Assembly: GCA_011364925.1 (NCBI GenBank)
Contig: RDOA01000002.1
Span: 32,001 to 96,000 of the forward strand
Origin: Promethearchaeota archaeon
GTDB taxonomy: Archaea > Asgardarchaeota > Lokiarchaeia > Sigyniarchaeales > SOKP01
Length of the DNA stretch: 64,000 nt
Direction of reading: 5' to 3'
Each line of letters starts with the position of its first letter. Position 1 is the first letter of the stretch. Below, piece after piece: positions 7,774 to 59,289 of this stretch. The notes beneath the pieces are model-generated. The model searched no databases, was not told the DNA's origin, and worked only from the letters and a program-made list of their open reading frames with translations. A program made the translations under genes and the position numbers.

Positions 7774-7885
7774 TTTTTCTTCCTCGACTTTATTGATCCT
7801 CTAATCAAAAGTTAAAACTACCATAATAACAAAATTAAGTTAATTTAAATTTATTTTTCAGCAAAAAGAAATTAAATTAACAAAC

Positions 7886-38196: not shown

Positions 38197-38904
38197 TTAT
38201 TCTTCTATTGGGTGAACTTTAAGCGAATCAATAATATTAATTATATCTTCAGCAAGTTCGTACCGCTCATCGCGATATTTTTCACGATTTAATCGTTTTT
38301 CAACCTTAAGCGGGGTACCAATTTTAACTCTGATTCCCGTTGTGTTAAACATGCCAAGAACCCTCGCTTTTTCGGTGTAGATCGCTAAAGGAATTATCGG
38401 TGCCATTCCTGCAACTGCGAATTTAATAATTCCCGCCATGGCTTTTACTTGAACTTCTGGCGTTAACTTGGATTCTGGCGTCATAGCCACAAGATCCCCT
38501 ACCTCGTTAAGATAATGAAACACCATATCAATTGGAACAGTATCATCTTTATCAAGAGTACTACGGAACATTCCTAAATTTTTCAAAACAGGTCCATATA
38601 TTTGATGTTTCATTAACTTGTGATGAACCATAAAATGGATTCTACGTCCGGTAACCTGGCTAATAATTGCCATGTCTCTTAGTGCGTTGTCGCTTATCGT
38701 AGTCAAAATGGCCTTACCCTTAACTGGCACATTTTCTCTGCCCTCTATCTTCAAGTCAGCGAAAGCTCCTAAGCCAAAACCTCCAATTCCTTTTGTAACT
38801 GCGTATAACACATCTTTCATTAAATCCGTACTGAAAATCTTATCCTTTCCTTTCGTTTCTTTTTCTTCTTTTACTTCTTTTTCTTCTGGTATTGTTTGAA
38901 CCAT
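38197..38904 (-). CDS. PlsC-fold acyltransferase homolog with degenerate catalytic motifs
   Basis: IEGRENVP..GKAIL, RRIHFM, APIIPLAI, VKIGTP; HX4D replaced by TISDNALRD and FPEGTR by MTPESK. Confidence 0.8.
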   Translation of the reverse strand: MVQTIPEEKEVKEEKETKGKDKIFSTDLMKDVLYAVTKGIGGFGLGAFADLKIEGRENVPVKGKAILTTISDNALRDMAIISQVTGRRIHFMVHHKLMKHQIYGPVLKNLGMFRSTLDKDDTVPIDMVFHYLNEVGDLVAMTPESKLTPEVQVKAMAGIIKFAVAGMAPIIPLAIYTEKARVLGMFNTTGIRVKIGTPLKVEKRLNREKYRDERYELAEDIINIIDSLKVHPIEE

Positions 38905-38916
38905 TCTTCTTCCACC

Positions 38917-39111
38917 TTATAGTCTATCTATAAAATTATTCACTTCCTCCATCCGTTTCTCGTAGTATTCTTTTAACTCTTTCTCAGAAACAAACGTAGG
39001 AATTACTTTTTCTAAATAAATATCAAAAATCGTTGATAACTTGGTTTTATGTTGAATTGACTCAAGAAATTCCTCTCCTAAGTGCTTTAGTTGATTAAAA
39101 AAGTCTGACAT
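38917..39111 (-). CDS. Small hypothetical protein (64 aa)
   Basis: Tightly packed between activase and PlsC-like genes; amphipathic helical pattern. Confidence 0.65.
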   Translation of the reverse strand: MSDFFNQLKHLGEEFLESIQHKTKLSTIFDIYLEKVIPTFVSEKELKEYYEKRMEEVNNFIDRL

Positions 39112-39132
39112 CTCTTTATCATCTTTTTTATT

Positions 39133-40158
39133 TTAAGTTAATTGATCCCATTTTCCGCATCGAGAGCCCCAACGGGCTATAATTTTATTACCAAATTCTG
39201 GCATTTTTACTTGAACAATCTCACAATTATTCGGACAGTCGCCACAATTGAAAGCAGAGGTAGTAAATTCAATCTCTGCTACTTCAAGACCTCTAAACAC
39301 TGTCTCGTGTTCGCGTTCTAAATAATAGTCTCTAACTAAAATAGCCATACCAAGTGCTCCCATAAGAACGTTATATTTAGGGACTATAACTTTACACCCT
39401 AAGTGCCTCTCAAAAGCTTCTATAATTCCCTTATTGTAGGACACCCCTCCTTGAAAGACGATTGGTTCTTCGAGGTCTTTACCTTTACCAACGTTGTTCA
39501 TATAATTGCGAACGAGAGAATCGCACAGTCCAGCAATTATATCCGCTTTAGAATACCCCGCGTTTTGCTTGTGAATCATATCTGATTCAGCAAATACAGT
39601 ACACCTACCAGCTATACTTACCGGGTTCTTTGATTTTATAGCATAATCTCCAAACTCTTCAATAGGAATCCCAAGCCTCGCCGCTTGGTGGTCAAGGAAC
39701 GAACCTGTTCCAGCAGCGCAAACAGAGTTCATTGCGAAATCTATAATTATGCCATCTCTCAAGAGTATAATTTTAGAATCCTGACCTCCGATCTCTAATA
39801 TGGTTCTTACATCGGGATACATTGTTTGAGCGGCAACAGCGTGAGCAATTATCTCGGTTTTTGCGAGATCTGCTCCTACAATGGCTTTAGTTAAATATCT
39901 TGCTGAACCAGTCGTCCCACAGCAACGAATAGCATATTCGGGTAAATTCTCACTCTCTTCTATTTTATCGCGTAATTGTGCCATTCCTGCTTTTGCTGAA
40001 TCGATAGGAGAACCTCTATTCCGCAAAAATACACTGGTTAGTATATTTCCGTCAGTATCCATAAGAACGAATTTACAACTTACGCTACCTATGTCGATTC
40101 CAAGGAACGCATCCTTCTTATCTTCTTCTTTCATTACTTTTTCAGATACATCTTCCAT
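39133..40158 (-). CDS. BcrAD/BadFG/HgdC-type ATP-dependent activator (ASKHA ATPase, 4Fe-4S), set A
   Basis: GIDIGSVSCK, TTGSAR, EIGGQDSK, NSVCAAGTGSFLD, AGRCTVFAESD; C-terminal CGDCPNNC...RC. Confidence 0.93.
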   Translation of the reverse strand: MEDVSEKVMKEEDKKDAFLGIDIGSVSCKFVLMDTDGNILTSVFLRNRGSPIDSAKAGMAQLRDKIEESENLPEYAIRCCGTTGSARYLTKAIVGADLAKTEIIAHAVAAQTMYPDVRTILEIGGQDSKIILLRDGIIIDFAMNSVCAAGTGSFLDHQAARLGIPIEEFGDYAIKSKNPVSIAGRCTVFAESDMIHKQNAGYSKADIIAGLCDSLVRNYMNNVGKGKDLEEPIVFQGGVSYNKGIIEAFERHLGCKVIVPKYNVLMGALGMAILVRDYYLEREHETVFRGLEVAEIEFTTSAFNCGDCPNNCEIVQVKMPEFGNKIIARWGSRCGKWDQLT

Positions 40159-40293
40159 TTTTACTCACCATTAAACCGAATTTTGTATTAATTGATTCGT
40201 TACGAATTCTGTATTATTTTTAATTTCTTTATTTTTACGAGCGGGCAAATTATACAATGTTTTGTTATTTGAGAAAGAAAATAAGACGAATAA

Positions 40294-40359
40294 TTTTACT
40301 TAATTAACTATTTAATCAAAAAAAAAACAGTTTAAAATAAAAATTTACCCATTATAAAC
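40294..40359 (-). promoter_or_regulatory. Shared cluster promoter, copy 1 (box B 40294-40320; core 40333-40359)
   Basis: + strand TAAAATAAAAATTTACCCATTATAAAC, one mismatch to the copies at 45656 and 50697. Confidence 0.7.
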
Positions 40360-40601
40360 CGATTATTAAAAGTATTACTATAATTATACACATTTTTGAT
40401 CCTCATTTTGTTCGAATCTTGATTAGTCTTCATTTTCGATAAATTTCCTTGTCCGTAGTTACTACTTCAATGTAAGTCATATACTTATTTTATCGAAGTC
40501 ATTTAAATAGTATAATCTTATTCATCTTCCTTATAAAATTTTACACATATTTTTAAAACTTAATTTTCTGATTAGTATTTAAAATTAAATAAGATGAATT
40601 T

Positions 40602-44419: not shown

Positions 44420-45604
44420 TTATTCGGTAATAATCTTAACGCACTCGTTATAGAAAGAGTCGCCGTAGTAAGGATAAATTTTCCGATTCCCATTTGCTTG
44501 GAATTCTTTGTTTTTTTCTATTTCCTTTTTCCTCCTACCATGCATAAGGTCTGCGAACGCCTCTAATCGCGTGCGGAAACCTTCCATACCTGATTGTTCA
44601 TCGAAGGAGAAATAAATTATTGGGAGATCGTAGATTTTCTTGAGTTTATTGGTTATAATCGTGCGAGCTACGACCTCAGGCATACATAAAAAGGGATACT
44701 CATGGACGAAACCATCAAATCCAGCCAGCGCCTTGTCGATATACTCCCCAAGCACCCACCTCGCCTCTCCACCGCAGTCTAACGGTAAATATGGACGCGA
44801 AAGATGCTCCAACCATTTTCTGTGATAATTTAGATGAAATTTGTGGACAACCCAATCATACAAGCTTAGAGATTGGTGAATTTCGATTCCCATCTCACCT
44901 AGCTTTCTTCTAATGTCAAGGTTAACGTAAGGTTCCAAGCTTATATGAATCTCGCCCGATATCCCTACTTTTAACGGAGTTCGAGTTTTATCGATATCCA
45001 GACCATTAAAATCTTGTTTAATAACATTTTTAAATTTCCTTAACTCGGGGAGCGTATTAGCCTCGTCGAGCTTTGTTAGCAGACCATTTACAATGTCTGT
45101 AGTGTCTCCTTGATTTCGCTCGTACGCTCGGAATAGCCCCTCTGCCGTCTGGATGTCGTTGAGTAATTTAGCCTTCTTTAGGAAAAATATGATGGCTTTC
45201 ACAAACTTCGAATAAACGAACAAATCACTCCGACCACTTATTTCTTGAAGCGTTTTAACCCAATGAAACTCAAGTAAATCGGCCTGATCCAAGGGGACTA
45301 CCGTAATATTCTTGTATCCCATATCCTTTAGAATTCTCTCCTGCACAGAAGCATAAAATCCGAACCTACAAGGTCCACAGTCGATCGCCATGACTAATGT
45401 ATCTGCTCCCTTCTCGATGGCATTGACAAAATCCCCTATTGTCGCCTTGAATGGAAAACAAACGAACTCTGGAGATTGCTTAACGCCGATTTTGATTGCC
45501 TCACGATTTGTTGGATCAGGAACGACCACATCTAAATCAAGGCTTGTAAAAAGTGTTTTAAAGGCAACCCAGTTTGGGCCCATATTAGGGAAGGAGATTA
45601 ACAT
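44420..45604 (-). CDS. PlsR-like/HgdAB-like reductase subunit 2, set A
   Basis: SPEFVCFPFK, CGPCRFGFY, GEIH, PFLCMPE, SFDEQSG..GFRTRLEAF. Confidence 0.85.
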   Translation of the reverse strand: MLISFPNMGPNWVAFKTLFTSLDLDVVVPDPTNREAIKIGVKQSPEFVCFPFKATIGDFVNAIEKGADTLVMAIDCGPCRFGFYASVQERILKDMGYKNITVVPLDQADLLEFHWVKTLQEISGRSDLFVYSKFVKAIIFFLKKAKLLNDIQTAEGLFRAYERNQGDTTDIVNGLLTKLDEANTLPELRKFKNVIKQDFNGLDIDKTRTPLKVGISGEIHISLEPYVNLDIRRKLGEMGIEIHQSLSLYDWVVHKFHLNYHRKWLEHLSRPYLPLDCGGEARWVLGEYIDKALAGFDGFVHEYPFLCMPEVVARTIITNKLKKIYDLPIIYFSFDEQSGMEGFRTRLEAFADLMHGRRKKEIEKNKEFQANGNRKIYPYYGDSFYNECVKIITE

Positions 45605-45619
45605 CTTAAATCTAAGAAA

Positions 45620-45685
45620 TTTTACCTAAGTCAAGTATTTGATCAAAACATGGTTTAAAATAAAAATTTACCCCTTATAAACAAA
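45620..45685 (-). promoter_or_regulatory. Shared cluster promoter, copy 2 (box B 45620-45647; core 45656-45685)
   Basis: Minus strand GTTTATAAGGGGTAAATTTTTATTTTA with TATA-like TTTATAA; identical to 50697-50726. Confidence 0.75.
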
Positions 45686-45779
45686 ATATTAATCATGTGT
45701 TATTTTTAATAAAAAATGGGAGCAATAATAATAAGATAGGATGCAAAAATTAATATTCCAGATAGTTCCAAAACTCGAA

Positions 45780-47105
45780 TCAAGATACCAGATTTTTCCA
45801 TATCGAATTTCTTGAAAAGAACTCAAGTCCGTTCTTAACGGCGAATCCTACATCTAATTTCTTTGATGGATTCAGCATAGTTAAAACCTTTGACATTGGT
45901 GTTTCAATACTAGAAACAAAATAATCAAAATTAGATTTCGGCTTAAAATATATACTTTTTATTTCATCCGGGATCACATACTTGACATCTTTAAACAAGG
46001 GATTAGCATTCTTGTTGCCGACCATTAAATCATGAAATGCTTCGATTCTTGTTCTAAGTCCTTCAAAACCAGAACTTCCATCAAGACTAATATGAATTTG
46101 GGGCATGTAAAACTTGTCCATGTTTTTCTCAGCCTCTAGCATTCCCATGAGGGATATTTCAGGCATGCAAGTGAAGGGAAAAATGTGGACATAGCCGTCG
46201 AACCCTTTTTCTTGACACTCAAGATAACTCCCCATGTTCCAGATCATCTCCCCACCAACATCCATTGGGACATAATTTTTTGCCCTTTTTTCAAGTCGTC
46301 TTCTTCGTTGGCTGGCGTCAAGTTTGTACATAACCCAATCAAAGACATCATACTGCTTGTGAACCTCGATACCCATGACGCCTAATTCTCCCATCAGATC
46401 ATAATTAACCCATTTCTCCAACATGACTTGGATTTCCCCAGTATAACAAACCCTCAAAGGTTCCATTTCCTTGTCAATAGGAATCTTGCGAAAGTGTTCA
46501 TCTATCGTTCTATCAAAATTAGATAATTTCATCAAATTGTATTCGTTATCAAGTAAATTCATCAAAGTATGAACTACTTTGGTAGTCATTGCTTTGGTTT
46601 TTTCCCGACATCTAACAAGTCCTTCAATATGGCTGATTCTTTCAACATAGTATGCTTTGATTAAGAACAAGAGTGTGTTTCTTAAAATTTTATAGTCATC
46701 AATTTTTCTTCCTGTTCTTTTTTCTAAATCATGAAACATCCTTAGCCATTCAAGATTTCGGAAATCATCTTGATTCAGATAAAACATTCTAACATCATTG
46801 AATCCCATGTTTTTCAAGATCCTTTTCTGGACAACAGCATAAATTCCTGCTCGACAAGGACCGTGATCAACAATCATCGCAAAATCTTTGACGTCATAAT
46901 TACGATACAGGTTTATCATTTCACCAAGAATGACTTTAAATGGAAAACAAACGAATTCAGGAGAAACTTTGACTCCTTCACTAACGATGTCAGTGTTTAC
47001 TAAAGGTGGTTCAACAACTTCAATACCAGGAAGATCATAGAATAAACCTTTGAAAAAAATATAGCTCCAACCCATTCGTGAAAATGCAATTCTGACATTT
47101 ACCAT
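45780..47105 (-). CDS. PlsR-like/HgdAB-like reductase subunit 2, set B
   Basis: SPEFVCFPFK, HGPCRAGIY, GEIQ, PFTCMPE, GLRTRIEAF; overlaps the end of the activase gene. Confidence 0.85.
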   Translation of the reverse strand: MVNVRIAFSRMGWSYIFFKGLFYDLPGIEVVEPPLVNTDIVSEGVKVSPEFVCFPFKVILGEMINLYRNYDVKDFAMIVDHGPCRAGIYAVVQKRILKNMGFNDVRMFYLNQDDFRNLEWLRMFHDLEKRTGRKIDDYKILRNTLLFLIKAYYVERISHIEGLVRCREKTKAMTTKVVHTLMNLLDNEYNLMKLSNFDRTIDEHFRKIPIDKEMEPLRVCYTGEIQVMLEKWVNYDLMGELGVMGIEVHKQYDVFDWVMYKLDASQRRRRLEKRAKNYVPMDVGGEMIWNMGSYLECQEKGFDGYVHIFPFTCMPEISLMGMLEAEKNMDKFYMPQIHISLDGSSGFEGLRTRIEAFHDLMVGNKNANPLFKDVKYVIPDEIKSIYFKPKSNFDYFVSSIETPMSKVLTMLNPSKKLDVGFAVKNGLEFFSRNSIWKNLVS

Positions 47106-48130
47106 TTACCGCACCTACTGTTCCATCGTGCAAATATCCTATCATCCTTTTCTTTTCCAGTTACCTTACTTTTATCTTCTTCTCTGACAATGTATTTAAC
47201 CGTACATCTATTCGCACAATCAGGACAGACAAATGAACCTGGAGCCAAGTTCATTTCACTGACTTTTAGGCCATGAAAAGAAGATAGCTGTCCATTTACA
47301 TGTTCCTTTGCCAAAATGGCTGAACCAAATGCTCCCATCACATAATAGTTTTCATGAATAATGACTTCATGCCCCAATTCTTCTTCAAAAGCATTTTTTA
47401 TTCCGGAATTTGCTGCAACTCCTCCTTGGAATACGAAGGGAGGACTCAGTTTTTTACCCTTGCACACATTATTCAAGTAGTTTCTAACAAGAGCTTTACA
47501 TAATCCCTTGATAATTGCTTCTTTAGAATATCCTTCTTGTTGTTTACTGATCATATCAGATTCGGCAAAAACTGTGCATCGTCCTGCAATTGAAACCTCC
47601 TCTTCTGCCCGAGAAGCATAATCCCCAAATTCTTCAATTGGAACCTTGATCCGAATTGCTTGGTGATCTAGAAAAGAACCAGTTCCGGCAGCACAAACAC
47701 TGTTCATGTTAAAATCTGTTACGATGCCATTTTTCATCAATATAACTTTGCTGTCCTGTCCTCCGATTTCAAGAATTGTTCTCACGTCAGGGGTATAAGT
47801 TGAAGCTCCAATTGCGTGAGCAATTATTTCAGGTTTTGCTATATCTGCACCGATTAAAGCTTTTATTAAATACCTAGCAGAACCTGTTGTCCCAACACCA
47901 TAAATATTTTTTTCGATGTGATCGGGAAGGACTTCTTCCATGTATTTTAGATTTTCTTGTGTAGAAACAATGGGAGAACCATCATTTCTAGTCCAGGTTG
48001 CATACAATAATTCATTACTCTCATTAATTATTGCACATTTCGTGGAGACACTTCCGACATCGATTCCTAGATATAACTTGTCTTCCACATCATCTGGAAG
48101 AATATTCTTGATAAATTCTGGTTCATTCAT
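47099..48130 (-). CDS. BcrAD/BadFG/HgdC-type ATP-dependent activator, set B
   Basis: GIDVGSVSTK, EIGGQDSK, NSVCAAGTGSFLD, AGRCTVFAESD, CPDCANRC; ATGA overlap with the upstream gene. Confidence 0.93.
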   Translation of the reverse strand: MNEPEFIKNILPDDVEDKLYLGIDVGSVSTKCAIINESNELLYATWTRNDGSPIVSTQENLKYMEEVLPDHIEKNIYGVGTTGSARYLIKALIGADIAKPEIIAHAIGASTYTPDVRTILEIGGQDSKVILMKNGIVTDFNMNSVCAAGTGSFLDHQAIRIKVPIEEFGDYASRAEEEVSIAGRCTVFAESDMISKQQEGYSKEAIIKGLCKALVRNYLNNVCKGKKLSPPFVFQGGVAANSGIKNAFEEELGHEVIIHENYYVMGAFGSAILAKEHVNGQLSSFHGLKVSEMNLAPGSFVCPDCANRCTVKYIVREEDKSKVTGKEKDDRIFARWNSRCGKW

Positions 48131-50640
48131 TTGTATTTCTTCCTCCTTATCATTTCTATAAAAGATTCTATTCTTGTGGTTATTTGGGATTCTCCAGTGT
48201 GTTCATCTAATGTAAGATCAATAAAAGGTTTATTTTTCATGTCAAAATCCTGCATTACCAATTCTTGAATTAAAGAATCAGGACCACATGCAAAAGAAAT
48301 TAAGAAAATGCCTCCATCAATCTCTTCATTATGGATAACATAATCAGATAATTGCATCAATTCATCTTCATTATCCCAGAAATTGGTTAGATTATCATCA
48401 ATTTCAACTCTTCTTGAGAAGATTTCCTTTGGAGCATTTTCAACAGTTACAACATCAACAAAATTGGCTTTGAGTATATCCATTAATCCATGATTAATAA
48501 TTGGTTCATAAGTGTTGTATGGATGACCAAGAACCATTAATGTAAGTGGATAATTTTCATAATCTTTGTTAAGTTTAGGTCGAAATCTTTTCTTAAACTT
48601 ATAATTAGGATATTTATCAAAAGGATACATTTTGTAAAGTGCATCAATGACAAGAATTCCATCCTCAGTCAACTTATGGAATTCTTCAAGTTTTTTATAT
48701 CCGTTCTCATACGCAAGTTTTGATTCTTCTTTAGATTTGCCTAATGTTTTTCCAAAATCTATTGCTGATTTCATCATTGTATGTTCCCTGGCATTAAAAG
48801 TCCATTCAATAACGGGAACATTAGAAACTGTCGAGTGCTGAGTGACATCTGGAAGGAGCAGGAATTTTGGACAATAATAATGATCCTTACTTTTACTAAC
48901 GAGTCTTGGAACAAATATAAAATCTAGATCGGGGTGATTCGTCGATAAATAATTCACATGACCGTAATGAATCTTGACTGGAATGCATAAATCGGTTGCA
49001 GACTGATTAGATCCGTTGGTAAGAATTTCTTTGTTCGTTTCTGGACTCACAATAACTTCGCAACCAAGACTTGTAAGCATTCCTTCCCATAATGGAAAAT
49101 ACTTGTAGAAATACAGGGAACGTGGTATACCTACCTTCAGGCTTTTCGTCTTTTCAGGTTTTTCAGTCTTTTCAGTTTTTTCGTTCTTTTTCTTATAATT
49201 CGTCTTTTCGTACAGGTTTCGAAATAGGTTCTTAGGATCCGTTCGTTCTTTCACATTATCGTATAATTCCTTGTTATATATCTTCCAGAACAAGTCTTCC
49301 TCGTAGAAATTGTGAGTTATTAGAGTTTTCATTCCCCCGAGCTCATAAACCTTTTCTTCAAGCGCTTTATAGAAGTTAAATCCCTTTCTTTTTTGCTCGA
49401 ACCCGTAGATGGCAAAATCTATGAATAATTCATCCTCGATGGGAGCGAACATGTCTTGATTAAGCCACGGGTAGAACTTGTACCCATCCAGCTTGTCTTT
49501 TTGCATGCGGTAAGGGACGATCCAAACCGGGAAGTAATTATCAAATACATCCAGGTACCAATTAAAAAATTCTTCCGCGTGAGTGAATGGTATGAAGACA
49601 TCAACAATTACGTCCGGTTCTCCACCCTTCTTAGTTAAAAATGGCAATCGTTCGCTGATGTTAAGAATATTTGTTGATCCAAGTATATAGGGTCCTACTA
49701 ACCACCGGACTACTTTATTCTCAAAAATTCCTCCAGCAACATTCCGTATCGACCAGTGACAATCTGCATCATACCTGAAAAAATAATCTATGGTGGAGAG
49801 GAAATCTCGCTTTTTTTCCATCGCACTTTTGTAATAAATATCGTAAAAATATTGACTCTTGTAAGGAGCTTCCTCCTCATCAACGAAGCTGGCAACACAG
49901 AGTACGTTCATATTCTTGGAGAAGATAAGCCCGTCCATCATTTCAATATCCTGCTTTTCGTAGTGTTGCATGATAGCTTCCATGTATTCACTAAAAGTAT
50001 TGTAACGGATGTAATCGATGCGAACGCACTTTTTTGCTGGAACGAGCTTAAACTTTAGGAGTGTGATGATTGCAATCGTGCCAAAACTCCCATGCAGCAT
50101 CTCGAATATATCATGGTTATCGCTTTTCGTGCATAACATTATGTCGCCTGTTCCTGTCACGATTTCTATTTCTTCACAGGAATCGAAAAATCCCCCATAC
50201 TTGAAAGACATGGATTCAACAGAACATCCTGCTACTGCCCCGCCTATCGTGATTCCCTTGAGCTCGGAAACCGTTTGCGGTACAAGACCATACTTTAAGG
50301 TTTCTGTTGCAAGTTTAACAAAAGTAACCCCTCCTTCTGCAATACATGTCCTAGTATCCGTGTTTATCTCAATAATGTCAGTAAGTGACTTTACATCAAT
50401 CGGCTTGTCACTATAGATTGGGTTATCTGGTTGTGGAGCCATGTGGGAAACATTCGCCTTTTTTAGAGAAAAATATTCTCCTGGCTTCGCGTTGTCGTAC
50501 GCGTTTCTAACCATTTCAGAGATCGCTTCTACTTTTCTTTTATGTATTGCTAGTTTTTCTTCGCTCATGTCATACACAGGCTTGGGATTATTGCACGAAA
50601 CGATCCTTGCTTTGGGAAGGAAATTAACATTATTTTTCAA
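48127..50640 (-). CDS. Fusion: DHCR24/Rv3719-like FAD oxidoreductase + DUF2229 reductase domain 1, set B
   Basis: ELKGITIGGAVAGCSVESMSFKYG, HGSFGT, YFFRYD, TDP.NLF.NLYEK; linker; then VGIPRSL, CIPVKIHYGH, CPKF, GHPYN, SFACGPDS, LDEHTGE..TRIESF. Confidence 0.85.
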   Translation of the reverse strand: MKNNVNFLPKARIVSCNNPKPVYDMSEEKLAIHKRKVEAISEMVRNAYDNAKPGEYFSLKKANVSHMAPQPDNPIYSDKPIDVKSLTDIIEINTDTRTCIAEGGVTFVKLATETLKYGLVPQTVSELKGITIGGAVAGCSVESMSFKYGGFFDSCEEIEIVTGTGDIMLCTKSDNHDIFEMLHGSFGTIAIITLLKFKLVPAKKCVRIDYIRYNTFSEYMEAIMQHYEKQDIEMMDGLIFSKNMNVLCVASFVDEEEAPYKSQYFYDIYYKSAMEKKRDFLSTIDYFFRYDADCHWSIRNVAGGIFENKVVRWLVGPYILGSTNILNISERLPFLTKKGGEPDVIVDVFIPFTHAEEFFNWYLDVFDNYFPVWIVPYRMQKDKLDGYKFYPWLNQDMFAPIEDELFIDFAIYGFEQKRKGFNFYKALEEKVYELGGMKTLITHNFYEEDLFWKIYNKELYDNVKERTDPKNLFRNLYEKTNYKKKNEKTEKTEKPEKTKSLKVGIPRSLYFYKYFPLWEGMLTSLGCEVIVSPETNKEILTNGSNQSATDLCIPVKIHYGHVNYLSTNHPDLDFIFVPRLVSKSKDHYYCPKFLLLPDVTQHSTVSNVPVIEWTFNAREHTMMKSAIDFGKTLGKSKEESKLAYENGYKKLEEFHKLTEDGILVIDALYKMYPFDKYPNYKFKKRFRPKLNKDYENYPLTLMVLGHPYNTYEPIINHGLMDILKANFVDVVTVENAPKEIFSRRVEIDDNLTNFWDNEDELMQLSDYVIHNEEIDGGIFLISFACGPDSLIQELVMQDFDMKNKPFIDLTLDEHTGESQITTRIESFIEMIRRKKYK
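49147..49182 (-). repeat. 9-bp tandem repeat x4 encoding the EKT/EKP interdomain linker
   Basis: GAAAAAACT GAAAAGACT GAAAAACCT GAAAAGACG at the junction of the two domains. Confidence 0.8.
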
Positions 50641-50645
50641 AGAAG

Positions 50646-50726
50646 TTTTACTTAGGCAAGTATTTGATCAAATCTATGAAATCAAATAACTCACTCTAAA
50701 ATAAAAATTTACCCCTTATAAACAAA
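50646..50726 (-). promoter_or_regulatory. Shared cluster promoter, copy 3 (box B 50646-50672; core 50697-50726)
   Basis: 30 bp identical to 45656-45685; CAAGTATTTGATCAAA identical to 45632-45647. Confidence 0.75.
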
Positions 50727-50973
50727 TTGTCAATTGTATGATACTTTTAATAAAAATTTCAATAATATATATTAATTTTCACAGATCGATTGACACTATT
50801 ATATTTGTATCTCCCGTCATATTGAGTTCTTCTAACATATATATAGCTCCTCGCTTCAGTCAAAAACTTTATTCCTTTCAGTATCGCTAAACGATACTAT
50901 ATACTAATAAACAACAGATCAGAAAGACTAAAATTAGAAAAGATTACAATTTCAATGCGAACATGGGATTATA

Positions 50974-52383
50974 TTACAACAAGTTATCTGACTTCTTCAT
51001 TAGTTCATTCTTCTTTTTACGCAGTCTTTTAGCCTGGACTGCGATAGTTTCAAGAAGTCTTATTTGGTTAGAGGCTAACCATGGGCCTTCACAATCCACG
51101 GCAGCGTATGGAACATCACTCTTATTGGCCAAAGGTCTTATGATTGCTTGAGAATTCATAGCAGGTTGGCAATTAAATGTTCCAAGGTTTATTAAGCCAT
51201 CGTAAATGTTTTCCTTAAGAGAATACAAAAACCTACCAACAATTTGTGGTGTTTCAGTCATACTGTTTGAGGATACATATTTATTACCTTCTTCTAGGAG
51301 TTTATCAATTTCGATATAGGAATCGAACAATAATCCTGATCTACTCATTATTCTTCTGTACATCTTACATTGAGTATCAATAAAATTTATCATACTCTTG
51401 GTTCTTTTCGCTCTTACTGCCTCTTTTTGTTCTTTTTCGTTTAATTCAGAAAAATTAATTAAGGCCTCATCGAACTGATCTTTTGGGGTGAGAAGTCCTT
51501 TACTAAACCCAAACCTTATTGTATTTTCGGACAAAAGTAAAGTCATCCCTTCTGAAACATCAGCAACCTTTGTTATAATTCCTTTCTGAAGGAAAAATTC
51601 TTCAATTGGATAATGATCAAACATTAAGTTCAATCCCCCAAAGATTAAAATTTTAGTAGTCTCTTCGACTTTAGCTTTTAAAGGGATTTTCGCAACTTCT
51701 TTTGCCCACCTTACTAAACCAGTTTTTATGGTTTTTTCCCCCATTCTCACGCTTTCAATGAAGTTGGTTGTAATTTCTTCGAAAGTGTTCAAAGCAGAGT
51801 ATTCATCCTCAGCCGTACATCGTAGGGCGTTCCGCGCTTCAATTATATACTGTCCGATTATAAAATTGAGCTTTTCTTGCGCAATAAAGTCTTTATTCAA
51901 TCCTAGATAATTATTATAATAATTAGGTATCTGGTAGAATAACACATTTTTCAGATTCAGTCGTTTTGAAAAGTTTTTCCATATAACTGGCCATGCACCA
52001 TTCTGACACGGGCCATCTTGATCTATGGGAGTAATATAAATAGTGATCTCGTTTTCAGATCTATTCTCATGAATATCTTTCAATATCTCACCAGCAATAG
52101 CAACACACGCAAGACATTCTCTTCCAGAACAGATCTTCTTACCGTATTGTAGAGTGGAGGTGTTAGTTTCTTTGCTGATACGGACATTCTTATTGTGTGA
52201 AGCGTACAAATCTTTAACAAGACGTATCCCATAAGAATTTCTTGGTTCTGGCAAAACATAGACAATTCTTGGATCACTAAAGTCAACGCTATTTCCATCG
52301 CTGTCTATAATAGAACCATTATGAACTTCAGCCGATTTTACTTTTTGAATATCTTCGATTTTAAATTTCTTTATATCAGACAT
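50974..52383 (-). CDS. PlsR-like reductase subunit 2, set C
   Basis: SGRECLAC, DGPCQNGAW, ET...VG, FNCQPA, AAVDCEG; 17 bp downstream of the PlsA-like gene. Confidence 0.8.
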   Translation of the reverse strand: MSDIKKFKIEDIQKVKSAEVHNGSIIDSDGNSVDFSDPRIVYVLPEPRNSYGIRLVKDLYASHNKNVRISKETNTSTLQYGKKICSGRECLACVAIAGEILKDIHENRSENEITIYITPIDQDGPCQNGAWPVIWKNFSKRLNLKNVLFYQIPNYYNNYLGLNKDFIAQEKLNFIIGQYIIEARNALRCTAEDEYSALNTFEEITTNFIESVRMGEKTIKTGLVRWAKEVAKIPLKAKVEETTKILIFGGLNLMFDHYPIEEFFLQKGIITKVADVSEGMTLLLSENTIRFGFSKGLLTPKDQFDEALINFSELNEKEQKEAVRAKRTKSMINFIDTQCKMYRRIMSRSGLLFDSYIEIDKLLEEGNKYVSSNSMTETPQIVGRFLYSLKENIYDGLINLGTFNCQPAMNSQAIIRPLANKSDVPYAAVDCEGPWLASNQIRLLETIAVQAKRLRKKKNELMKKSDNLL

Positions 52384-52400
52384 TTTTCTATTAAAATTCT

Positions 52401-55334
52401 CTAGCTTGTTAATTCAAATTTTTTACGTCGTTCTTCAATTATATCAAGAAATGCTTCTACCCGTGTTTCAAAACCAGCATGTGCAGTATGTGAATCAATC
52501 TCAAGATAACAAAATGTAGATCCTGCAAGCTCCTGTCGAAATTGATGATACATTGTACCGTCAGGACCACAAGAAAAACAGGAAACCATACAAATATAGA
52601 CATTTGGATTTTTTTTTGCGAAATTTACTGCATTATCGATCTGTTGAGTAAAAAGCCATGCATTTCGTTCATGATTAGCCGTTAGTAGTGGTAAAATATC
52701 AACTGGAATAGCATGATATCCTCTACTTGCAATTTTCTGAGGAAGTGCAATATTAATATCATTAGGATAGATTACATAAGGTCTTCCAGCAATTATTACA
52801 CTTGGTTCCTTGATTAATTTATCTAGTAGTTTTTCTCCTAACTCATGATACTTCCGAATAAACTTTTTATAATGAGAAAAAGCCCGTTTACCTGCTTCTA
52901 TTCCTACACTCCTTTCTAATCCGAGTTGAATCGCAACTTGCCCCAATTCTTGTAATGTTGTTTGTAAATATCGTTTCGATGTGCTTATATGAGGTGCTAA
53001 AATTCTATCTTGCTCGTTCTCAAACGCAGCTCGAACAACATCAGATATAACAGCTGTTGAGCTGCAGGTATACCCGTGAAGATATCCATCTGTAGGTTCG
53101 AATTCAAAAGTTCGAGGTAAAAATATATATTCGATTCCTTGGTTGATAAGATCTAGTACTGCTCCATGCGTTAATTCACCAGGATAACATATCGATGCCA
53201 ATGTTTTAGTATTTCCTAATGTATTTGATTTTGATAACACTACATCGAATCCCAATTCATTAATAAATTTGGTATAAAAGGGAAAAAGTGAATGTGTAGT
53301 TAAAACCATTGGTAAACCAATAGATCCTAGTGAATTTTTAAGAGCAGTTGGTCCAAATTCATCGTAAATCATTGAGTTCCTTATCTCTACTAGATTTTTA
53401 CCTAGTTTTATCTTTTTGCCTCTCTGACGCAATAGCTTGTATTTTGAACATAATCCACCAAACGGATAGGTATTGCCTCTTATGGAAATGTTTTGGATCT
53501 CGCAATTGTTTTCACATGCATTACACCTAAATGTGCTCTTTACTTTCATCTCTCCATGTAGAAGATCCCTTAAATTAAAATTATGTTCAGAGATTTCTTC
53601 GTTTCTTAAAAGATCGAGAGCCATTAGAGCAGAACCTATACTTCCCATAAGCTCGGGATGGGCTGGAACAATAATTTTTCGTTGAACTCGATCAGCAATG
53701 GCTAATGCAACAGCTTTATTTAAAGCAAGGCCTCCCAGAAATAAGATATTTTCACCAATTTGGCGGGATCCAATGATCCTCGAAATATAATTATCAGCAA
53801 TTGAATAAACAAGACCTGCAACAACATCCTCTCGTTTAGCGCCTTGCTGTAGTGCGTTTCTTAAATCAGTATTAATAAAAGCTGCACATCTTTCCCCAAA
53901 TGAAATTGGCTGAGAGCTGGTTAGAGCAATTTCACTGATTTTTTCGACTGGAATCCCCATATCTACTGACGCAGATTCTTCTAAAAAACTCCCAGTTCCG
54001 GCAGAACACCCTTCATTCATAGCATAATCAATAGGAACACCTTTTAAAAAGGAAATAAATTTTGAATCTTGCCCACCAATTTCAAAGACAGTATCGATTC
54101 CAAGTAATTCTTCCGTAGCGGATCGTGCGTGAGCTAATATTTCGTTAAAACTTCGACAATTATCCAAATACACTGAAACCATTTCTCTCGCTGACCCTGT
54201 TACACCGCATTGAATTATATTAATCGTAGTATTGCCAATTTGTTCTAAAAGTATCTCTAGACACTGTTTTGTTGATACAATGGGATTCCCTAAAGTTCTT
54301 AAATACGCACTAGCTCCAATGGAACTATCTTTTACATTGAATAGAACTGCTTTTGTAGTAGTTGATCCGGCGTCTAAACCTAATATATAGGATCCATTTT
54401 TAACAATTCTCATTTTAGTAGCTGGTTCTACTCGATAATCTAATAAATTTTCAATACTGGTAAGGGTTTTAGTAGTTTCAAAGACCGACTCCTTTTGTTC
54501 AATCAAATTTTCACTCCTTTGAGTATCATTTTGAATCTCAGACGCATATAGAGCCGCTCCAAAGACTTCAAGAAATGGGCTTTCTGATAAAACTTCAATA
54601 TCAGAGGATGGAAGAAAGTTTTGCATACTTTCGATAAAATACTTATTTAAAGAAACCCCACCCGTGATAACTATTAAATCAGTTGGCCATTGAGCACTCT
54701 CAATCATTTCACTCACTTTTCTTGCTAAATCGTGTATTAATGTTTTTGCGATGTCTTCTTTTTTACATTCTCCTTTGTTAAGTTTATGCGTCGCGTCAGA
54801 TTTACAATGCACCGAACATCGAGTTGCTAATTGAACTAACTGCCCCTTTGAACTTTCCTCAATTCCCTGCTTTACAGAGAGACCCATCCTTTCAAGTTGC
54901 TGGACGATAAATTCTCCTGTTCCAGCGGCACATTTAGAGGTTGAAATAATATTCTTAATAACGCCATTTTTCATTGGGTATATACTAAATGTTTCGCCTC
55001 CTAAAGAAAGAAGTAAATCGGGTTTTAAATTATAATATTGCAGTGCTTTTTCAAAGCATTCTACTTCAGAATAATAGGGAAAATCGAAAAATTGTTTTGC
55101 AACATTTCCTGTCATAACGATATTTGAATCACCATTGGTATTATGACGTTTAAAAATCTCTCTAATTTTTTCTCTAGGGAAACCCTCATGACGCAAAACT
55201 TCATTTATTATCGTTCCGTCTTGGGAAATTCGAACCCATTTTACAGAAACCGCCCCTATCTCTAATCCCTCATAATACTTATACTTGTACGAGACTTCTT
55301 TTGTGAAACTTTCGTTTGACATTAGGATCATCAA
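52401..55334 (-). CDS. PlsA/Ger-like protein: activator 1 - activator 2 - DUF2229 reductase 1, set C
   Basis: Act1 KCAAGTGEF/RCSVHC; Act2 GLDAGSTTTK, EIGGQDSK, NEGCSAGTGSFLEE, RCAAF; CNACENNC; Red1 CYPGE.THG, GRPY, CFSCGPD, EIDSHTAHAGFETRVEAF. Confidence 0.88.
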   Translation of the reverse strand: MMILMSNESFTKEVSYKYKYYEGLEIGAVSVKWVRISQDGTIINEVLRHEGFPREKIREIFKRHNTNGDSNIVMTGNVAKQFFDFPYYSEVECFEKALQYYNLKPDLLLSLGGETFSIYPMKNGVIKNIISTSKCAAGTGEFIVQQLERMGLSVKQGIEESSKGQLVQLATRCSVHCKSDATHKLNKGECKKEDIAKTLIHDLARKVSEMIESAQWPTDLIVITGGVSLNKYFIESMQNFLPSSDIEVLSESPFLEVFGAALYASEIQNDTQRSENLIEQKESVFETTKTLTSIENLLDYRVEPATKMRIVKNGSYILGLDAGSTTTKAVLFNVKDSSIGASAYLRTLGNPIVSTKQCLEILLEQIGNTTINIIQCGVTGSAREMVSVYLDNCRSFNEILAHARSATEELLGIDTVFEIGGQDSKFISFLKGVPIDYAMNEGCSAGTGSFLEESASVDMGIPVEKISEIALTSSQPISFGERCAAFINTDLRNALQQGAKREDVVAGLVYSIADNYISRIIGSRQIGENILFLGGLALNKAVALAIADRVQRKIIVPAHPELMGSIGSALMALDLLRNEEISEHNFNLRDLLHGEMKVKSTFRCNACENNCEIQNISIRGNTYPFGGLCSKYKLLRQRGKKIKLGKNLVEIRNSMIYDEFGPTALKNSLGSIGLPMVLTTHSLFPFYTKFINELGFDVVLSKSNTLGNTKTLASICYPGELTHGAVLDLINQGIEYIFLPRTFEFEPTDGYLHGYTCSSTAVISDVVRAAFENEQDRILAPHISTSKRYLQTTLQELGQVAIQLGLERSVGIEAGKRAFSHYKKFIRKYHELGEKLLDKLIKEPSVIIAGRPYVIYPNDINIALPQKIASRGYHAIPVDILPLLTANHERNAWLFTQQIDNAVNFAKKNPNVYICMVSCFSCGPDGTMYHQFRQELAGSTFCYLEIDSHTAHAGFETRVEAFLDIIEERRKKFELTS

Positions 55335-55479
55335 ATATTATTGGATAATTGTTTAAAATCTTCTCAAAGGGAGTACCGAATTTAATTTAATTCCAAATTT
55401 AGAATATCTATTCAATAATTCCTTAGTTTATCTAAATTGCTTAAAATTATGATATAATGGTTAAGCACATATGGTTATA

Positions 55480-55526
55480 TTTTACTTAGATACTTATTTA
55501 ATCAAAATTGAAGTGTTGTATATAAA
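55480..55526 (-). promoter_or_regulatory. Promoter of the PlsA-like gene with box B copy 4 (55480-55506) and TATA-like TTTATATA (55519-55526)
   Basis: TTTTACTTAGATACTTATTTAATCAAA matches box B of the other three units. Confidence 0.55.
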
Positions 55527-55715: not shown

Positions 55716-56792
55716 CTATACTTCTTGTTTTGAGCGAATAATTAAATGTTGCTTTTGGTTTAAGTCCTTTCTTCTTTTCTTTCTTCTAATCATTTCAACA
55801 AAACTTTCTACTCTTGTCAATAATCCAGCTTCTCCCGAATGTTCATCCATCGTAATCTCCAAGAAAGGAAGTCCAACAACTTTCATATCGCGCATGATTA
55901 ATTCTGAAATTAGACTATCTGGACCACAAGCAAAACTTATTAAGAAAATAACTCCATCAATTTCGTCTCGACCTTCAGTGAGGAAATATCGGATGCTTTG
56001 CATGATTTCTTCTTCATGGCGCCAGTAATTTCGAAGTTTCCCACCTTTTGGGTTGACGATAACAGGTTTCTTAAAAATGAATTCTGGTAAGTTTTCGATA
56101 GTGATAACTTCTACTCCTTGATCTTGTAACTTTTTCTGAAAATCAAGGTTGATGAAAGTATCGAATATGTTGTAAGCATGTCCTAATAGTAAAAACTTTA
56201 TATCACCAGTGAGTTTTCTCTTAGGTAAGGTAAAAGAGCGATTCCTTTCAGCTAACCGTAGTGCATAATTGACCGAAGCGCCGTTTCTCAAAAATTCGTG
56301 ATACTCGTCAAAATACCTTTGGGCTTCTCTATACGCGTTTAAAGATTGATTTTGAGTTTTTCCTAACTGACTACCGAGTTCAATTGCGGCTGCTGATATA
56401 GGAAACTCTTTAACATTTACCTCAAAGTTCAAAATTTTTGGAACTCCCGGTAAAATTTTAATTACATCGGGTAATGATAAGAATTTTGGGCAAAAATACG
56501 AATCTTTTGTTTCAGAAACATATCTCGGTACAAAAATATAGTCTAAATCAGGGTGTTCTTCTATTAGTTTGATAACTTGTCCGTAGTAAATCTTAACGGG
56601 AATGCATAACTCTCCAAATCCATGAGTTACGCCTTCCTCAACTATTTTTTTGTTTGTAAGGGGACTTATAACGATTTCGGCATCTAGCTCTTCTAAGATC
56701 TTTTTCCAAAACGGAAAATACCTGTAAAAATGAAGCGCTCTCGGTATCCCCACTTTGAATTTTTTCTTAGTGGACGGTTGTGGAACTTCCAT
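55716..56792 (-). CDS. Stand-alone DUF2229 reductase domain 1, set A
   Basis: VGIPRAL, CIPVKIYYG, CPKFLSLPD, GHAYN, SFACGPDS, MDEHSGEAGLLTRVESF. Confidence 0.88.
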   Translation of the reverse strand: MEVPQPSTKKKFKVGIPRALHFYRYFPFWKKILEELDAEIVISPLTNKKIVEEGVTHGFGELCIPVKIYYGQVIKLIEEHPDLDYIFVPRYVSETKDSYFCPKFLSLPDVIKILPGVPKILNFEVNVKEFPISAAAIELGSQLGKTQNQSLNAYREAQRYFDEYHEFLRNGASVNYALRLAERNRSFTLPKRKLTGDIKFLLLGHAYNIFDTFINLDFQKKLQDQGVEVITIENLPEFIFKKPVIVNPKGGKLRNYWRHEEEIMQSIRYFLTEGRDEIDGVIFLISFACGPDSLISELIMRDMKVVGLPFLEITMDEHSGEAGLLTRVESFVEMIRRKKRRKDLNQKQHLIIRSKQEV

Positions 56793-56813
56793 GTTAACAC
56801 ATCCCCTTAAGTT

Positions 56814-58493
56814 CTATGCATCTGGGCTATCATAAAGCAATAAATCTTTAATTTGAGCCATCATATTGGCAGTTAGACGCTTTAATTCTTCGTAGTCCGG
56901 CATAGGTTTACCCCAATATTTTTTGTGCTCCATGAATAAAGGTCCTGCTTTTAAGATATGACCTGTGTAGAAATTCAACATTTTCGCGTGTTTGGGATAG
57001 ATGTCTTCCGTTCCCGTTATCCCGATCAGTACGATTGGAACTTGTTTTTCGATCGCTAAACGCATCGCTCCGGTGTGACCCTCCAATAGTTCTCCGCCAC
57101 CAGGATTAGTAGTTCCCTCAGGATAAACTACACATAATTCTCCTTTGTCCAATACACTTTTTGCGTAATTGAATGAATCTATATCGTGTTGACCGCGTTT
57201 AAGTGGGAAAGCGTGATGGTTTCTAATCCACGCGTTAACAAGCGGCGGTTTGAATAAGGTTTGTTTTGCCATCTGATATAAAACCCGTTTACTATGATAG
57301 ATTAAACTCGTTGCTAAGATAATTACATCCCATTCAGAATTGTGGTTAGTGCACACGACAGCAGCTCCTTCTTCGGGTATATATTTTTCGAAATCAATTA
57401 CTTTATAGGGCATCATCAGTTCACACCAATTGTGGACTAACCAACCCGAGAAGTTTTGGACAGTTCTCTGAAATTGATCTCGAACTCCAAAAACCTCCAA
57501 TGTCTTTAAAAACGAATACCATATATCGTCGAAAAGTTGTAATGTACCTATTCCAACATCTTTTAAATAACCCTTGAAGGAGAACGAATCTTTAGGTTTT
57601 TGGGCGTCTTCTGGAGAACCGATTGATAATTCCTCTTCTTTCTTTTGCTTTCTCGGATCTACAATAACGTAATCTCGCAAATCTAGTACTACTTGACGTA
57701 ATTCAGTGGTTAGTCTTTTTATTTCTTCGTATGATACTTTGTTAATATCGTATTTGTCGTAATATATTGGGTCTCCTACGCGCACTTTAACTTGAGTTGG
57801 CTTCATTACAAGTTTGCCTTTGGGTAACGCATTTCTCGATCCTATAACTGCCATAGGAACTATAGGTACTTTCGTCTCAATGGCTAGTCGAACCGCTCCT
57901 GTTTTAAATTCTCCGAGCTCCCAACCTGTCTCTTCTCGAGATCGTGTCCCTTCAGGGAAAATGCCAACCCACTCTCCATTACGTATAATCTCCTTAGCTG
58001 TCTCCCACCCTTGCTCAGGATTTTCTCGGTCTAATTTAAACGCTCCGAGATTAGTAAATAAGGTTCTTACTAAAGGAGTTTTGAAATTGTCCAACTTACT
58101 CATGTATCGGATTCGTCTGTGGCACGCAGCACCATAGAAGAACGGGTCTAAATGGCTTTCATGGTTTCCCACTAGGATGCCCGGACCATATTCAGGGAAC
58201 ATATTCCCTTGTGGGTATTCTGCTTTAAAATTCCACAAAAGACGAGCAAAAAACTTAATATAGATAAACGCAGCCCACCATTGGAGTTGTCCTTCAATAT
58301 CTTCAACGTCTAATCGTTTAATAGCTTTGCGGTAAAGGTCGTTTAAGGGATCAATAGGATTATACTTTAATACCTTATAAGTTGCGTTTTGATGTCGTTT
58401 TCCGAAGTCTAATTCTTCTTGTTCCTTTTCTTCAGTAGTTTTAACTAAACGCGTTTCTTCAGTAGTTTTAAATTCTTCTTCTTCTAGTACCAT
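56814..58493 (-). CDS. plsC: Tandem double-domain PlsC-family glycerolipid acyltransferase
   Basis: Domain 1 NHESHLD...FPEGTRS; domain 2 NHNSEWD...YPEGTTN; both HX4D motifs intact. Confidence 0.93.
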   Translation of the reverse strand: MVLEEEEFKTTEETRLVKTTEEKEQEELDFGKRHQNATYKVLKYNPIDPLNDLYRKAIKRLDVEDIEGQLQWWAAFIYIKFFARLLWNFKAEYPQGNMFPEYGPGILVGNHESHLDPFFYGAACHRRIRYMSKLDNFKTPLVRTLFTNLGAFKLDRENPEQGWETAKEIIRNGEWVGIFPEGTRSREETGWELGEFKTGAVRLAIETKVPIVPMAVIGSRNALPKGKLVMKPTQVKVRVGDPIYYDKYDINKVSYEEIKRLTTELRQVVLDLRDYVIVDPRKQKKEEELSIGSPEDAQKPKDSFSFKGYLKDVGIGTLQLFDDIWYSFLKTLEVFGVRDQFQRTVQNFSGWLVHNWCELMMPYKVIDFEKYIPEEGAAVVCTNHNSEWDVIILATSLIYHSKRVLYQMAKQTLFKPPLVNAWIRNHHAFPLKRGQHDIDSFNYAKSVLDKGELCVVYPEGTTNPGGGELLEGHTGAMRLAIEKQVPIVLIGITGTEDIYPKHAKMLNFYTGHILKAGPLFMEHKKYWGKPMPDYEELKRLTANMMAQIKDLLLYDSPDA

Positions 58494-58506
58494 TTTTTAC
58501 ACACTT

Positions 58507-59289
58507 TTAGGATTTTATTTTTACACTATTTTTAGTGCTCGAATCGGATATATTCTTTTTTTCAATTAACTTTTTTAATTCCTCTAGTGAATCAATTAAT
58601 AAATCGGGTTCGAATTCTGCTAACATCTCTTTTTTACTAACACCGCTTGCGACTCCGATCGTCCAAACTCCAGCTTCTCTCCCAGCTTGGATATCTGAAG
58701 GCATATCCCCAATCATTACAAACTCTTTCAAATTACACGATTTGTAAGTCTCGAAAACGGGATTTAGAGCTGTTGGATCGGGTTTCAAATTAGGGAGAAG
58801 ATCAGCTCCAAAAACACCTTTAAAAACGCTTTTAACCTTGTTTTCTTCAAGATGAGGAATGATATTCTTAGTCTGATTATGTGATACGATAAAAAAGTCG
58901 TACGATTTCTTGTATTTACTAATGAAATCGGTTGCTTCGGGGTAAAAGGGTGCTTCTTTAGCTAATGTTAAGTATCGAGTAAATATTTTTACCGCTATTC
59001 TTAATTTTTTAAAGAATGTTAATGATTGGAGCGAAGTAATGTATTTAAACAATTCAAAAGATTCTAATATGATTTTAGGAAGTGGCGTTCCTTGGATTAT
59101 CTCCATTAAAGCTCCGATCTCTTGCATCGTAGTTTCAATATTGGTCTTAATCTGCTTCTCTTCGTAGACTTCTTCTATTGATTTCTGAAGTGATTCTCTT
59201 ATATCGAGGACAGTTCCGTCAAAATCGAAAATAATACCTCGAATTGTCCCATTTTGAAGCCGCTTTACTAATTGATTGTCAGAGATCAT
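58507..59289 (-). CDS. HAD-superfamily phosphatase (Gph-like), first gene of the lipid operon
   Basis: FDFDGT, VSH, KPDP, IGDMPSD...G..AG; 13 bp upstream of the double PlsC. Confidence 0.92.
   Translation of the reverse strand: MISDNQLVKRLQNGTIRGIIFDFDGTVLDIRESLQKSIEEVYEEKQIKTNIETTMQEIGALMEIIQGTPLPKIILESFELFKYITSLQSLTFFKKLRIAVKIFTRYLTLAKEAPFYPEATDFISKYKKSYDFFIVSHNQTKNIIPHLEENKVKSVFKGVFGADLLPNLKPDPTALNPVFETYKSCNLKEFVMIGDMPSDIQAGREAGVWTIGVASGVSKKEMLAEFEPDLLIDSLEELKKLIEKKNISDSSTKNSVKIKS

Follow-up and report, generated by a model that had tools for sequence, protein, structure and literature searches.

A single open reading frame (ORF) on the reverse strand of the DNA analyzed here (the window: 64,000 nucleotides [nt], positions 32,001 to 96,000 of contig RDOA01000002.1, GenBank assembly GCA_011364925.1, from a Promethearchaeota archaeon) joins a flavin adenine dinucleotide (FAD)-linked domain to Red1, the DUF2229-bearing reductase domain of plasmalogen synthase (PlsA)-type proteins. 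Sequence comparison makes the flavin domain a member of an uncharacterized family, here termed family X, sister to the BfaA/Rv3719-type lipid methylene reductases. On phylogenetic evidence, the pairing of family X with PlsA/Ger-type genes arose at least twice, as a fusion in Promethearchaeia and as an operon in bacteria; the independent bacterial pairing is new here. We judge it probable that the flavin domain and the Fe-S module partner on a lipid, and we propose, with slightly less than even confidence, that the Fe-S module makes a vinyl ether that the flavin domain reduces to an alkyl ether.

The fused frame and its flavin domain

Counted from a TTG codon, the fusion ORF (48127-50640) is open for 837 codons and matches FAD_binding_4 (PF01565) at residues 81-170, DUF2229 (PF09989) at 502-734 (E 2.6e-45), and, weakly, HGD-D at 754-831. 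The true start is probably the ATG at 50568, which would yield 813 amino acids (aa), because homologues begin at MSEEKL and the 24 extra codons overlie a 21-codon upstream ORF (uORF). The VAO/PCMH-fold FAD domain then spans about 461 aa (49186-50568) and is followed by a low-complexity Lys/Glu/Thr linker (49141-49185) and the 337-aa Red1 domain (48127-49140; DUF2229 with an HGD-D-like C terminus). An earlier note on this DNA, drawn from the sequence alone, had described the same order of domains; the architecture stands, with an FAD domain shorter than the ~485 aa given there. The (EKT)4-like linker that it reported is also present but, by comparison with relatives, is a local expansion in this genome; elsewhere the linker has mostly 12 residues (range, 12 to 24) and is in frame without exception.

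The same note had named two ways in which the fusion could prove spurious, an assembly chimera or an oddity of this contig, and neither holds. The collected loci contain 24 distinct fused variants from independent assemblies, none of them split, and three additional clusters at 90% identity come from NCBI, JGI, and Logan. In two metatranscriptomes from close relatives, contigs run across the junction with an in-frame 27-nt deletion, which suggests, short of proof, that the fusion is transcribed in those relatives. Raw-read coverage of the locus was scant in run X21, and in the best DNA run filtering left a gap next to the junction. Red1 has no start codon of its own in the fusion, and the GC content of third codon positions (GC3) changes at the junction from 0.44 in the FAD half to 0.25 in the Red1 half, consistent with separate origins. 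Both halves are under purifying selection, with nonsynonymous-to-synonymous rate ratios (dN/dS) of about 0.14 and 0.2-0.26, respectively. A single-sequence fold of the complete fusion protein was unusable (pLDDT 32).

AlphaFold modeled the flavin half as a complete VAO-type fold (pLDDT 93; pTM 0.92) that aligns with DprE1 over 368 residues (Z 28.1; root-mean-square deviation, 3.4 Å); together with the above-cut-off match to PF01565, this assigns it to the VAO/PCMH superfamily. Solved VAO-fold relatives are 10-18% identical to it and, in sequence searches, match its N-terminal half only; no solved DHCR24 or BfaA structure was among the sequence or fold search matches. The only full-length characterized relatives found were the BfaA/Rv3719 orthologues of Tsukamurella, Nocardia, and Nonomuraea, recognized by synteny with a cfa-type methyltransferase gene and 28-30% identical over 93-97% (E about 1e-46 to 1e-48). 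These are far closer than any oxidase or AGPS. In the tree, family X (stand-alone proteins 40-62% identical to the flavin domain, mostly from uncultured bacteria) is a clade of its own with support 100 and a stem of 0.53, apart from the cfa-linked BfaA genes, which are 38-70% identical among themselves. Orthology with BfaA was rejected, since the domain lies outside the BfaA clade and has no adjacent or genomic BfaB/cfa partner. Of the proposed DHCR24/Rv3719 likeness, the Rv3719 part is borne out by full-length BfaA homology, but the domain belongs to a separate, sister clade, with AGPS distant.

The motif EL..ITIGG...G..VESMS.KYG, present in the flavin domain and in agreement with the DHCR24 signature, is not diagnostic of DHCR24, since BfaA has it too. 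The protein starts with the fold's first helix and has no hydrophobic leader, hence no DHCR24-type N-terminal membrane anchor, and the automatic "Delta24-sterol reductase" labels on family X clusters and on an Anaeramoeba homologue are no evidence of activity. Identity with AGPS was rejected as well: the AGPS profile matches positions 54-221 only (E 4e-10), and structure alignment gave 14-16% identity and Z 15-17 versus Z 28 for DprE1.

Three further features of the family were noted. An Anaeramoeba flamelloides protein (P0004; KAJ3439860.1), 55% identical to the flavin domain, clusters in the tree with L117 and the fused Asgard domains (support 97), and the homologue from A. ignava (P0414) lies outside family X; lateral gain of a P0004-type gene by an anaerobic eukaryote is possible on this topology. 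In the motif PQTVSELKG, Ser (VSEL) marks the clade that includes the Asgard fusion, Anaeramoeba, and L059, at a position where most family X and BfaA proteins have Pro (VPEL) and which we take to be near the flavin in VAO enzymes. Five proteins of 888-916 aa (P0355, P0359, P0362, P0369, and P0373) give two family X profile matches each, apparent tandem duplications of the flavin domain.

The fusion is coupled to activator and Red2 genes, as the earlier note had stated. Its stop codon shares the ATGA at 48130-48127 with the activator start, and the end of the activator gene overlaps by 7 nt with the start of Red2, the last gene of this three-gene set (set B). The activator (47099-48130) is a single-domain, ATP-dependent BcrAD_BadFG protein (PF01869, E 5.5e-47; TIGR00241 above cut-off) with two cluster cysteines (C146/C185) and a C-terminal 4-Cys motif, and Red2 (45780-47105) has three Cys motifs (C53/C84/C313). 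Red1 contributes C52, C90, and C285 (domain numbering; alignment A3), predicted as likely [4Fe-4S] ligands, and all three motifs are kept in every complete fused copy. This pattern of Act, Red1, and Red2 cysteines is that of the full-length protein of bacterial locus L146. The nearest unfused Red1 (72% identical; L216) has the same activator and Red2 downstream and an unrelated gene upstream, and the next nearest unfused trio (56%; L218) lies behind a PlsC gene. The upstream gene of L216 (657-2228; 523 aa), with 2-3 predicted hydrophobic segments and no Pfam match, was rejected as a relative of the flavin domain. Set B also lacks the two subunits matching PF06050 above cut-off that would mark a 2-hydroxyacyl-CoA dehydratase (HgdAB/HadBC): Red1 scored 27.2 bits against a cut-off of 28.4, over its last 78 residues only, and Red2 had no match.

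Pairing of family X with PlsA/Ger-type genes in bacteria

Among the 79 stand-alone family X loci surveyed for neighbors, the commonest direct neighbor was a full-length PlsA/Ger-type gene. At eight metagenome loci (L141, L146, L154, L163, L168, L177, L178, and L184), which differ in flanking genes and range in GC content from 0.51 to 0.69, the family X gene lies directly downstream of an Act-Act-Red1-Red2 gene encoding 1420-1460 aa (three are cut by the contig end), at spacings from a 4-nt overlap up to about 140 nt. Genome G449 adds a looser case, with family X 2 kb from a PlsA-type gene and two small genes, one PIN-like, in between. The PlsA-linked family X genes form one clade (support 99) in which 9 of the 10 members are linked. 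The two origins follow from the rejection of a tree forcing this clade together with the fused domains (approximately unbiased test, p-AU 4e-51); the Red1 partners of the fusion and of the bacterial loci likewise sit on different branches, at 22-24% identity.

By a rough estimate from assumed gene frequencies, the chance of finding two such neighbors besides the discovery case is about 0.0001-0.006, and that of one alone 0.01-0.1. We therefore see good support for reading the recurrent pairing as a functional link between family X and PlsA-type genes, with no particular reaction implied. The pairing in L160, from a third clade, where family X and a divergent PlsA-type gene converge and overlap, may be a coincidence. 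At L146, an additional convergent Red2-only gene (6815-8122) stands just after the operon.

Named genomes added few operons of this kind. For the Bryobacteraceae locus, its phylum gave 2 among 301 genomes, and its small order and class gave no new ones; for the Ignavibacteriales locus, 300 genomes of its phylum gave none. The literature covered, most subscription journals aside, yielded no published account of the bacterial operon, no enzyme described as a vinyl ether reductase, no paper on how DHCR24 works mechanistically, and none on the fusion, in line with the earlier note, which knew of no description of this architecture.

Spread of the cassette and its resident lipid operon

When genomes were searched with a profile, the FAD half turned up in 28 of the 134 others (seven genera) in the Promethearchaeia (Loki) family of the window and in none of 26 that belong to different families of this class; extending the search to the whole phylum brought in one more fragment, at a contig end. 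Within the genus of the window, the fusion locus occurs in 18 of 37 genomes, fragments counted. These counts are lower bounds, as contigs frequently break at the locus. The two halves share a single frame in every case where both can be seen. From this distribution, the fusion is young and limited to one family. Loci 86-94% identical to the window are mostly titled Promethearchaeota. Three loci titled Nanopelagicaceae, Ignavibacteriales, and Nitrosopumilaceae (L025, L034, and L042) carry the cassette at 91-93% identity; L025 shares contig number and position with G011, a genome of the window's genus, and is likely mislabeled or mis-binned.

The fusion, activator, and Red2 remain together across genomes. 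In the window's genus, this cassette often sits between Red1 and Red2 of a HAD-PlsC-Red1-Red2-Act-PlsC operon (set A), often preceded by a 29-110-codon remnant of set-A Red2; in other genomes its surroundings are unrelated. Between genera, synonymous divergence of the flavin half has a median of 0.25 (down to 0.03) versus 0.77 (saturated) for RpoB, and the flavin-half and RpoB trees disagree, which together indicate a recent lateral spread of the cassette between genera. Mis-binning could mimic single transfer cases; two carriers lie on contigs of 154 kb and 700 kb. Since DUF2229 genes are nearly universal in the class (134 of 161 genomes), set B would be an add-on to a resident system. No family X gene was found in viral contigs, and plasmid matches were of the BfaA type only.

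In the window, the resident operon flanks the cassette on the same reverse strand. Its upstream part (55716-59289) encodes a HAD phosphatase, a two-domain PlsC acyltransferase, and an unfused Red1 that is 43% identical to the fused one, an order that recurs in L025, L026, L030, L036, and L049. Set-A Red2 (44420-45604) followed this Red1 in the inferred ancestral operon entered by the cassette, and the downstream part (38197-40158) holds an activator (39133-40158) and a degenerate PlsC-like gene (38197-38904); the Red2-Act-PlsC order recurs in L025, L047, and L048. PlsC neighbors here and at L218 bear out the lipid context that the earlier note had assumed for the fusion. In a simple motif scan, the two-domain PlsC (56814-58493), conserved upstream of set-A Red1, was the sole intact PlsC-motif protein in the genome.

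The promoter region and first codons of set-A Red2 are duplicated in front of the fusion (50565-50756, reverse strand; repeats D3 and D16). The 21-codon uORF (50630-50565) overlaps the fusion start, and its first six codons (MLISFP) copy the start of set-A Red2. The length of this remnant varies by genome (6, 29, 48, 63, 67, and 110 codons; L008, L010, L013, L015, L018, L020, and the window), which suggests insertion by recombination at set-A Red2 or erosion afterwards. Upstream elements of 27-60 nt are also repeated before several cluster units (40293-40392, 45618-45715, 50643-50756, and 55479-55507).

Between the fusion and upstream set A lies set C (50974-55334, reverse strand), with an Act-Act-Red1 gene (977 aa) and a Red2-like gene (469 aa) in the canonical two-gene PlsA/PlsR or Ger layout; none of the other loci inspected showed it next to the fusion. 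Its Red1, on a long branch, groups with bacterial PlsA genes that have a family X neighbor. Elsewhere in the genome, contig C29 carries a separate canonical activator with two HGD-D genes. Six GGR-family genes scored above cut-off (contigs C19, C21, C27, C31, C41, and C70 of G000), one beside a GGGP-synthase-family gene; judged by gene content, an archaeal lipid route is present together with the bacterial-type operon. No cfa/BfaB homologue was found in the genome, where the best tblastn match had E 5e-4 and partial PF02353 matches fell on small methyltransferases only.

Proposed reaction, its alternatives, and known systems

PlsA/PlsR convert the sn-1 ester reductively into a vinyl ether (PMC9702350, PMC8788747), and BfaA, drawing on NADPH, reduces the methylene C=C on phospholipid acyl chains (PMC7791843). 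A 2026 paper assigns the vinyl-to-alkyl ether step to a "yet-unknown enzyme" and links single-activator homologues to plasmalogens (PMC13274423). In our proposal, set B is a lipid-modification cassette of three genes that moves laterally and whose activator, probably a homodimer, would spend ATP to push low-potential electrons into the [4Fe-4S] pair of Red1/Red2. Like PlsA/PlsR, this pair would turn an acyl ester of a glycerolipid into a 1-alkenyl (vinyl) ether by reduction and dehydration, and the tethered flavin domain would reduce the electron-rich vinyl-ether double bond with NAD(P)H to give a saturated alkyl ether, through protonation to an oxocarbenium ion followed by hydride transfer from FADH2. 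DHCR24 and BfaA reduce unactivated alkenes via stabilized-cation-like intermediates, a chemistry that fits an enol ether. We infer the ester substrate, the vinyl-ether product, and what the flavin step acts on and in which direction; the proposal draws its support from the independent family X/PlsA pairing, the kinship with BfaA, the PlsC context, and selection with in-frame linker indels. The fusion would act as a tether securing co-expression and co-localization. Nothing supports the channeling that the earlier note had envisaged, the linker being variable and of low complexity. Its two-step scheme fares better, as the nearest aligned relatives reduce lipid C=C bonds and the pairing recurs in bacteria. 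As a wider possibility, about which our doubts outweigh our confidence, family X might contain the missing vinyl-ether reductase, recruited independently by anaerobic bacteria (operon) and Asgard archaea (fusion).

Several observations weigh against this proposal. Ger of Thermotoga and Desulfatibacillum alone yields alkyl ethers in E. coli (PMC13159169) and, because it saturates alone, no flavin partner is generally needed for alkyl ethers. PlsA and Ger are indistinguishable by sequence (PMC13274423), and in bacteria the PlsA-type partners of family X show the two-activator arrangement that goes with Ger. In about 70 of the 79 stand-alone family X loci, the DNA examined contains no PlsA-type gene and the neighbors vary; the fused domain's nearest stand-alone relatives (57-62% identical) adjoin MFS, aminotransferase, and other genes; and G525, within the PlsA-linked clade, gave no DUF2229 match in a genome whose completeness is not established. 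Nor is there a BfaB-type partner to supply the known substrate.

Part of this evidence fits a rather unlikely alternative in which both modules act on the same membrane lipids at different bonds, the trio on the ester and the flavin domain on a chain double bond, whether in an acyl chain (unsaturated or methylene) or, as with DHCR24, a Delta-type alkene in an isoprenoid. BfaA acts on mid-chain methylene groups, the many family X genes without PlsA neighbors imply a PlsA-independent substrate, one of them lies near a fatty-acid desaturase gene (L056), and the Anaeramoeba protein groups with the fused clade. Yet the genome lacks a cfa/BfaB homologue, isoprenoid saturation is already served by the six GGR-family genes, and the repeated PlsA-type pairing is explained less directly. 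The flavin domain could instead be a passenger, a family X gene that landed before Red1-Act-Red2 and lost its stop codon, so that the halves co-travel while working on unrelated substrates. The short variable linker, the absence of a Red1 start codon, the GC3 step, the unrelated gene upstream of the nearest unfused Red1, and the youth and narrow range of the fusion all suit such an accident, which we nonetheless find distinctly unlikely, given that the operon pairing was independently acquired and retained in bacteria and that no split copy occurs among the 24 variants.

Two other readings change the chemistry of one module, and both are improbable. The Fe-S module might be a radical dehydratase, akin to 2-hydroxyacyl-CoA dehydratases, that works on an acyl or lipid chain bearing a hydroxyl group, with the flavin domain reducing the resulting enoyl or olefin for a net deoxygenation without an ether. 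Dehydratases paired with flavin reductases are established in reductive amino-acid fermentation, and Red1 has a weak HGD-D match and HadB/C-type PDB matches at E 0.002-0.009; set against these are the strong DUF2229 match, the C-terminal 4-Cys activator motif common to PlsA-type proteins, the PlsC context, and the separate canonical activator with two HGD-D genes on contig C29. Least probable to us is that the flavin domain works oxidatively, on an ether lipid, alcohol, or aldehyde (for example, in ether-lipid turnover), or relays electrons from a small substrate to the Fe-S module. Most solved VAO-fold relatives are oxidases or dehydrogenases, but at 10-18% identity they are distant, whereas the full-length homologues of known activity are reductases, and a flavin at the NAD(P)H level is a poor donor for the activator cluster.

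The locus offers a candidate for the anaerobic step from vinyl ether to saturated alkyl ether that is cheaply testable, as the stand-alone bacterial version (L146 type) has about 450 aa and is usable beside a validated plasmalogen synthase. If true, the proposal would give a first function to a large uncharacterized DHCR24/BfaA-related family and define a two-enzyme anaerobic route, distinct from Ger, from bacterial-type ester lipids to alkyl ethers; some Lokiarchaeia would then make fatty-alkyl ether lipids via a cassette still spreading between genera. This bears on bacterial-type ester and ether lipids in Asgard archaea, on the lipid-divide question, and on the sources of sediment ether-lipid biomarkers. 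Were the flavin domain a passenger, an ordinary but well-documented mobile PlsA-like cassette would remain.

Among known systems, PlsA/PlsR of Clostridium perfringens and the single-gene PlsA of Enterococcus and Lactococcus resemble set B in encoding Act, Red1, and Red2 modules together, in Cys motifs for [4Fe-4S] clusters, in an anaerobic host, and in acyltransferase context. Set B differs in its archaeal host, in being split over three genes with one activator domain rather than an Act1-Act2-Red1 chain, in a Red1 only 21-26% identical to that of full-length PlsA-type proteins, and in the VAO flavoprotein fused N-terminal to Red1. Ger (Tmari_0479; Desulfatibacillum alkenivorans SHJ90043; PMC13159169) shares the domain families and the proposed net alkyl-ether product, and homologues of it in Lokiarchaeota are already published. 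Its BBD core (two activator domains plus DUF2229), common to all confirmed alkyl-ether producers, is in one chain and it needs no flavin partner, whereas in set B the only B domain is encoded by its own gene and a flavoprotein is fused to Red1. BfaA/TmsA/Rv3719 (PMC7791843, PMC5660069) is a full-length homologue of the flavin domain with shared motifs and is likewise soluble, without a transmembrane anchor; the flavin domain has His for Asn in an N-terminal motif and FRYD for WRWD, and is paired with a PlsA-type Fe-S reductase instead of a cfa-type methyltransferase. DHCR24/DWF1 resembles the flavin domain in the signature motif and lends its name to the automatic labels, but the flavin domain lacks its N-terminal membrane anchor, and no sterol context is apparent, though no search was aimed at one. 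AGPS shares the VAO fold and a place in an ether-lipid pathway, and differs in its low identity to the flavin domain, in a sequence match confined to the N-terminal half, and in its chemistry.

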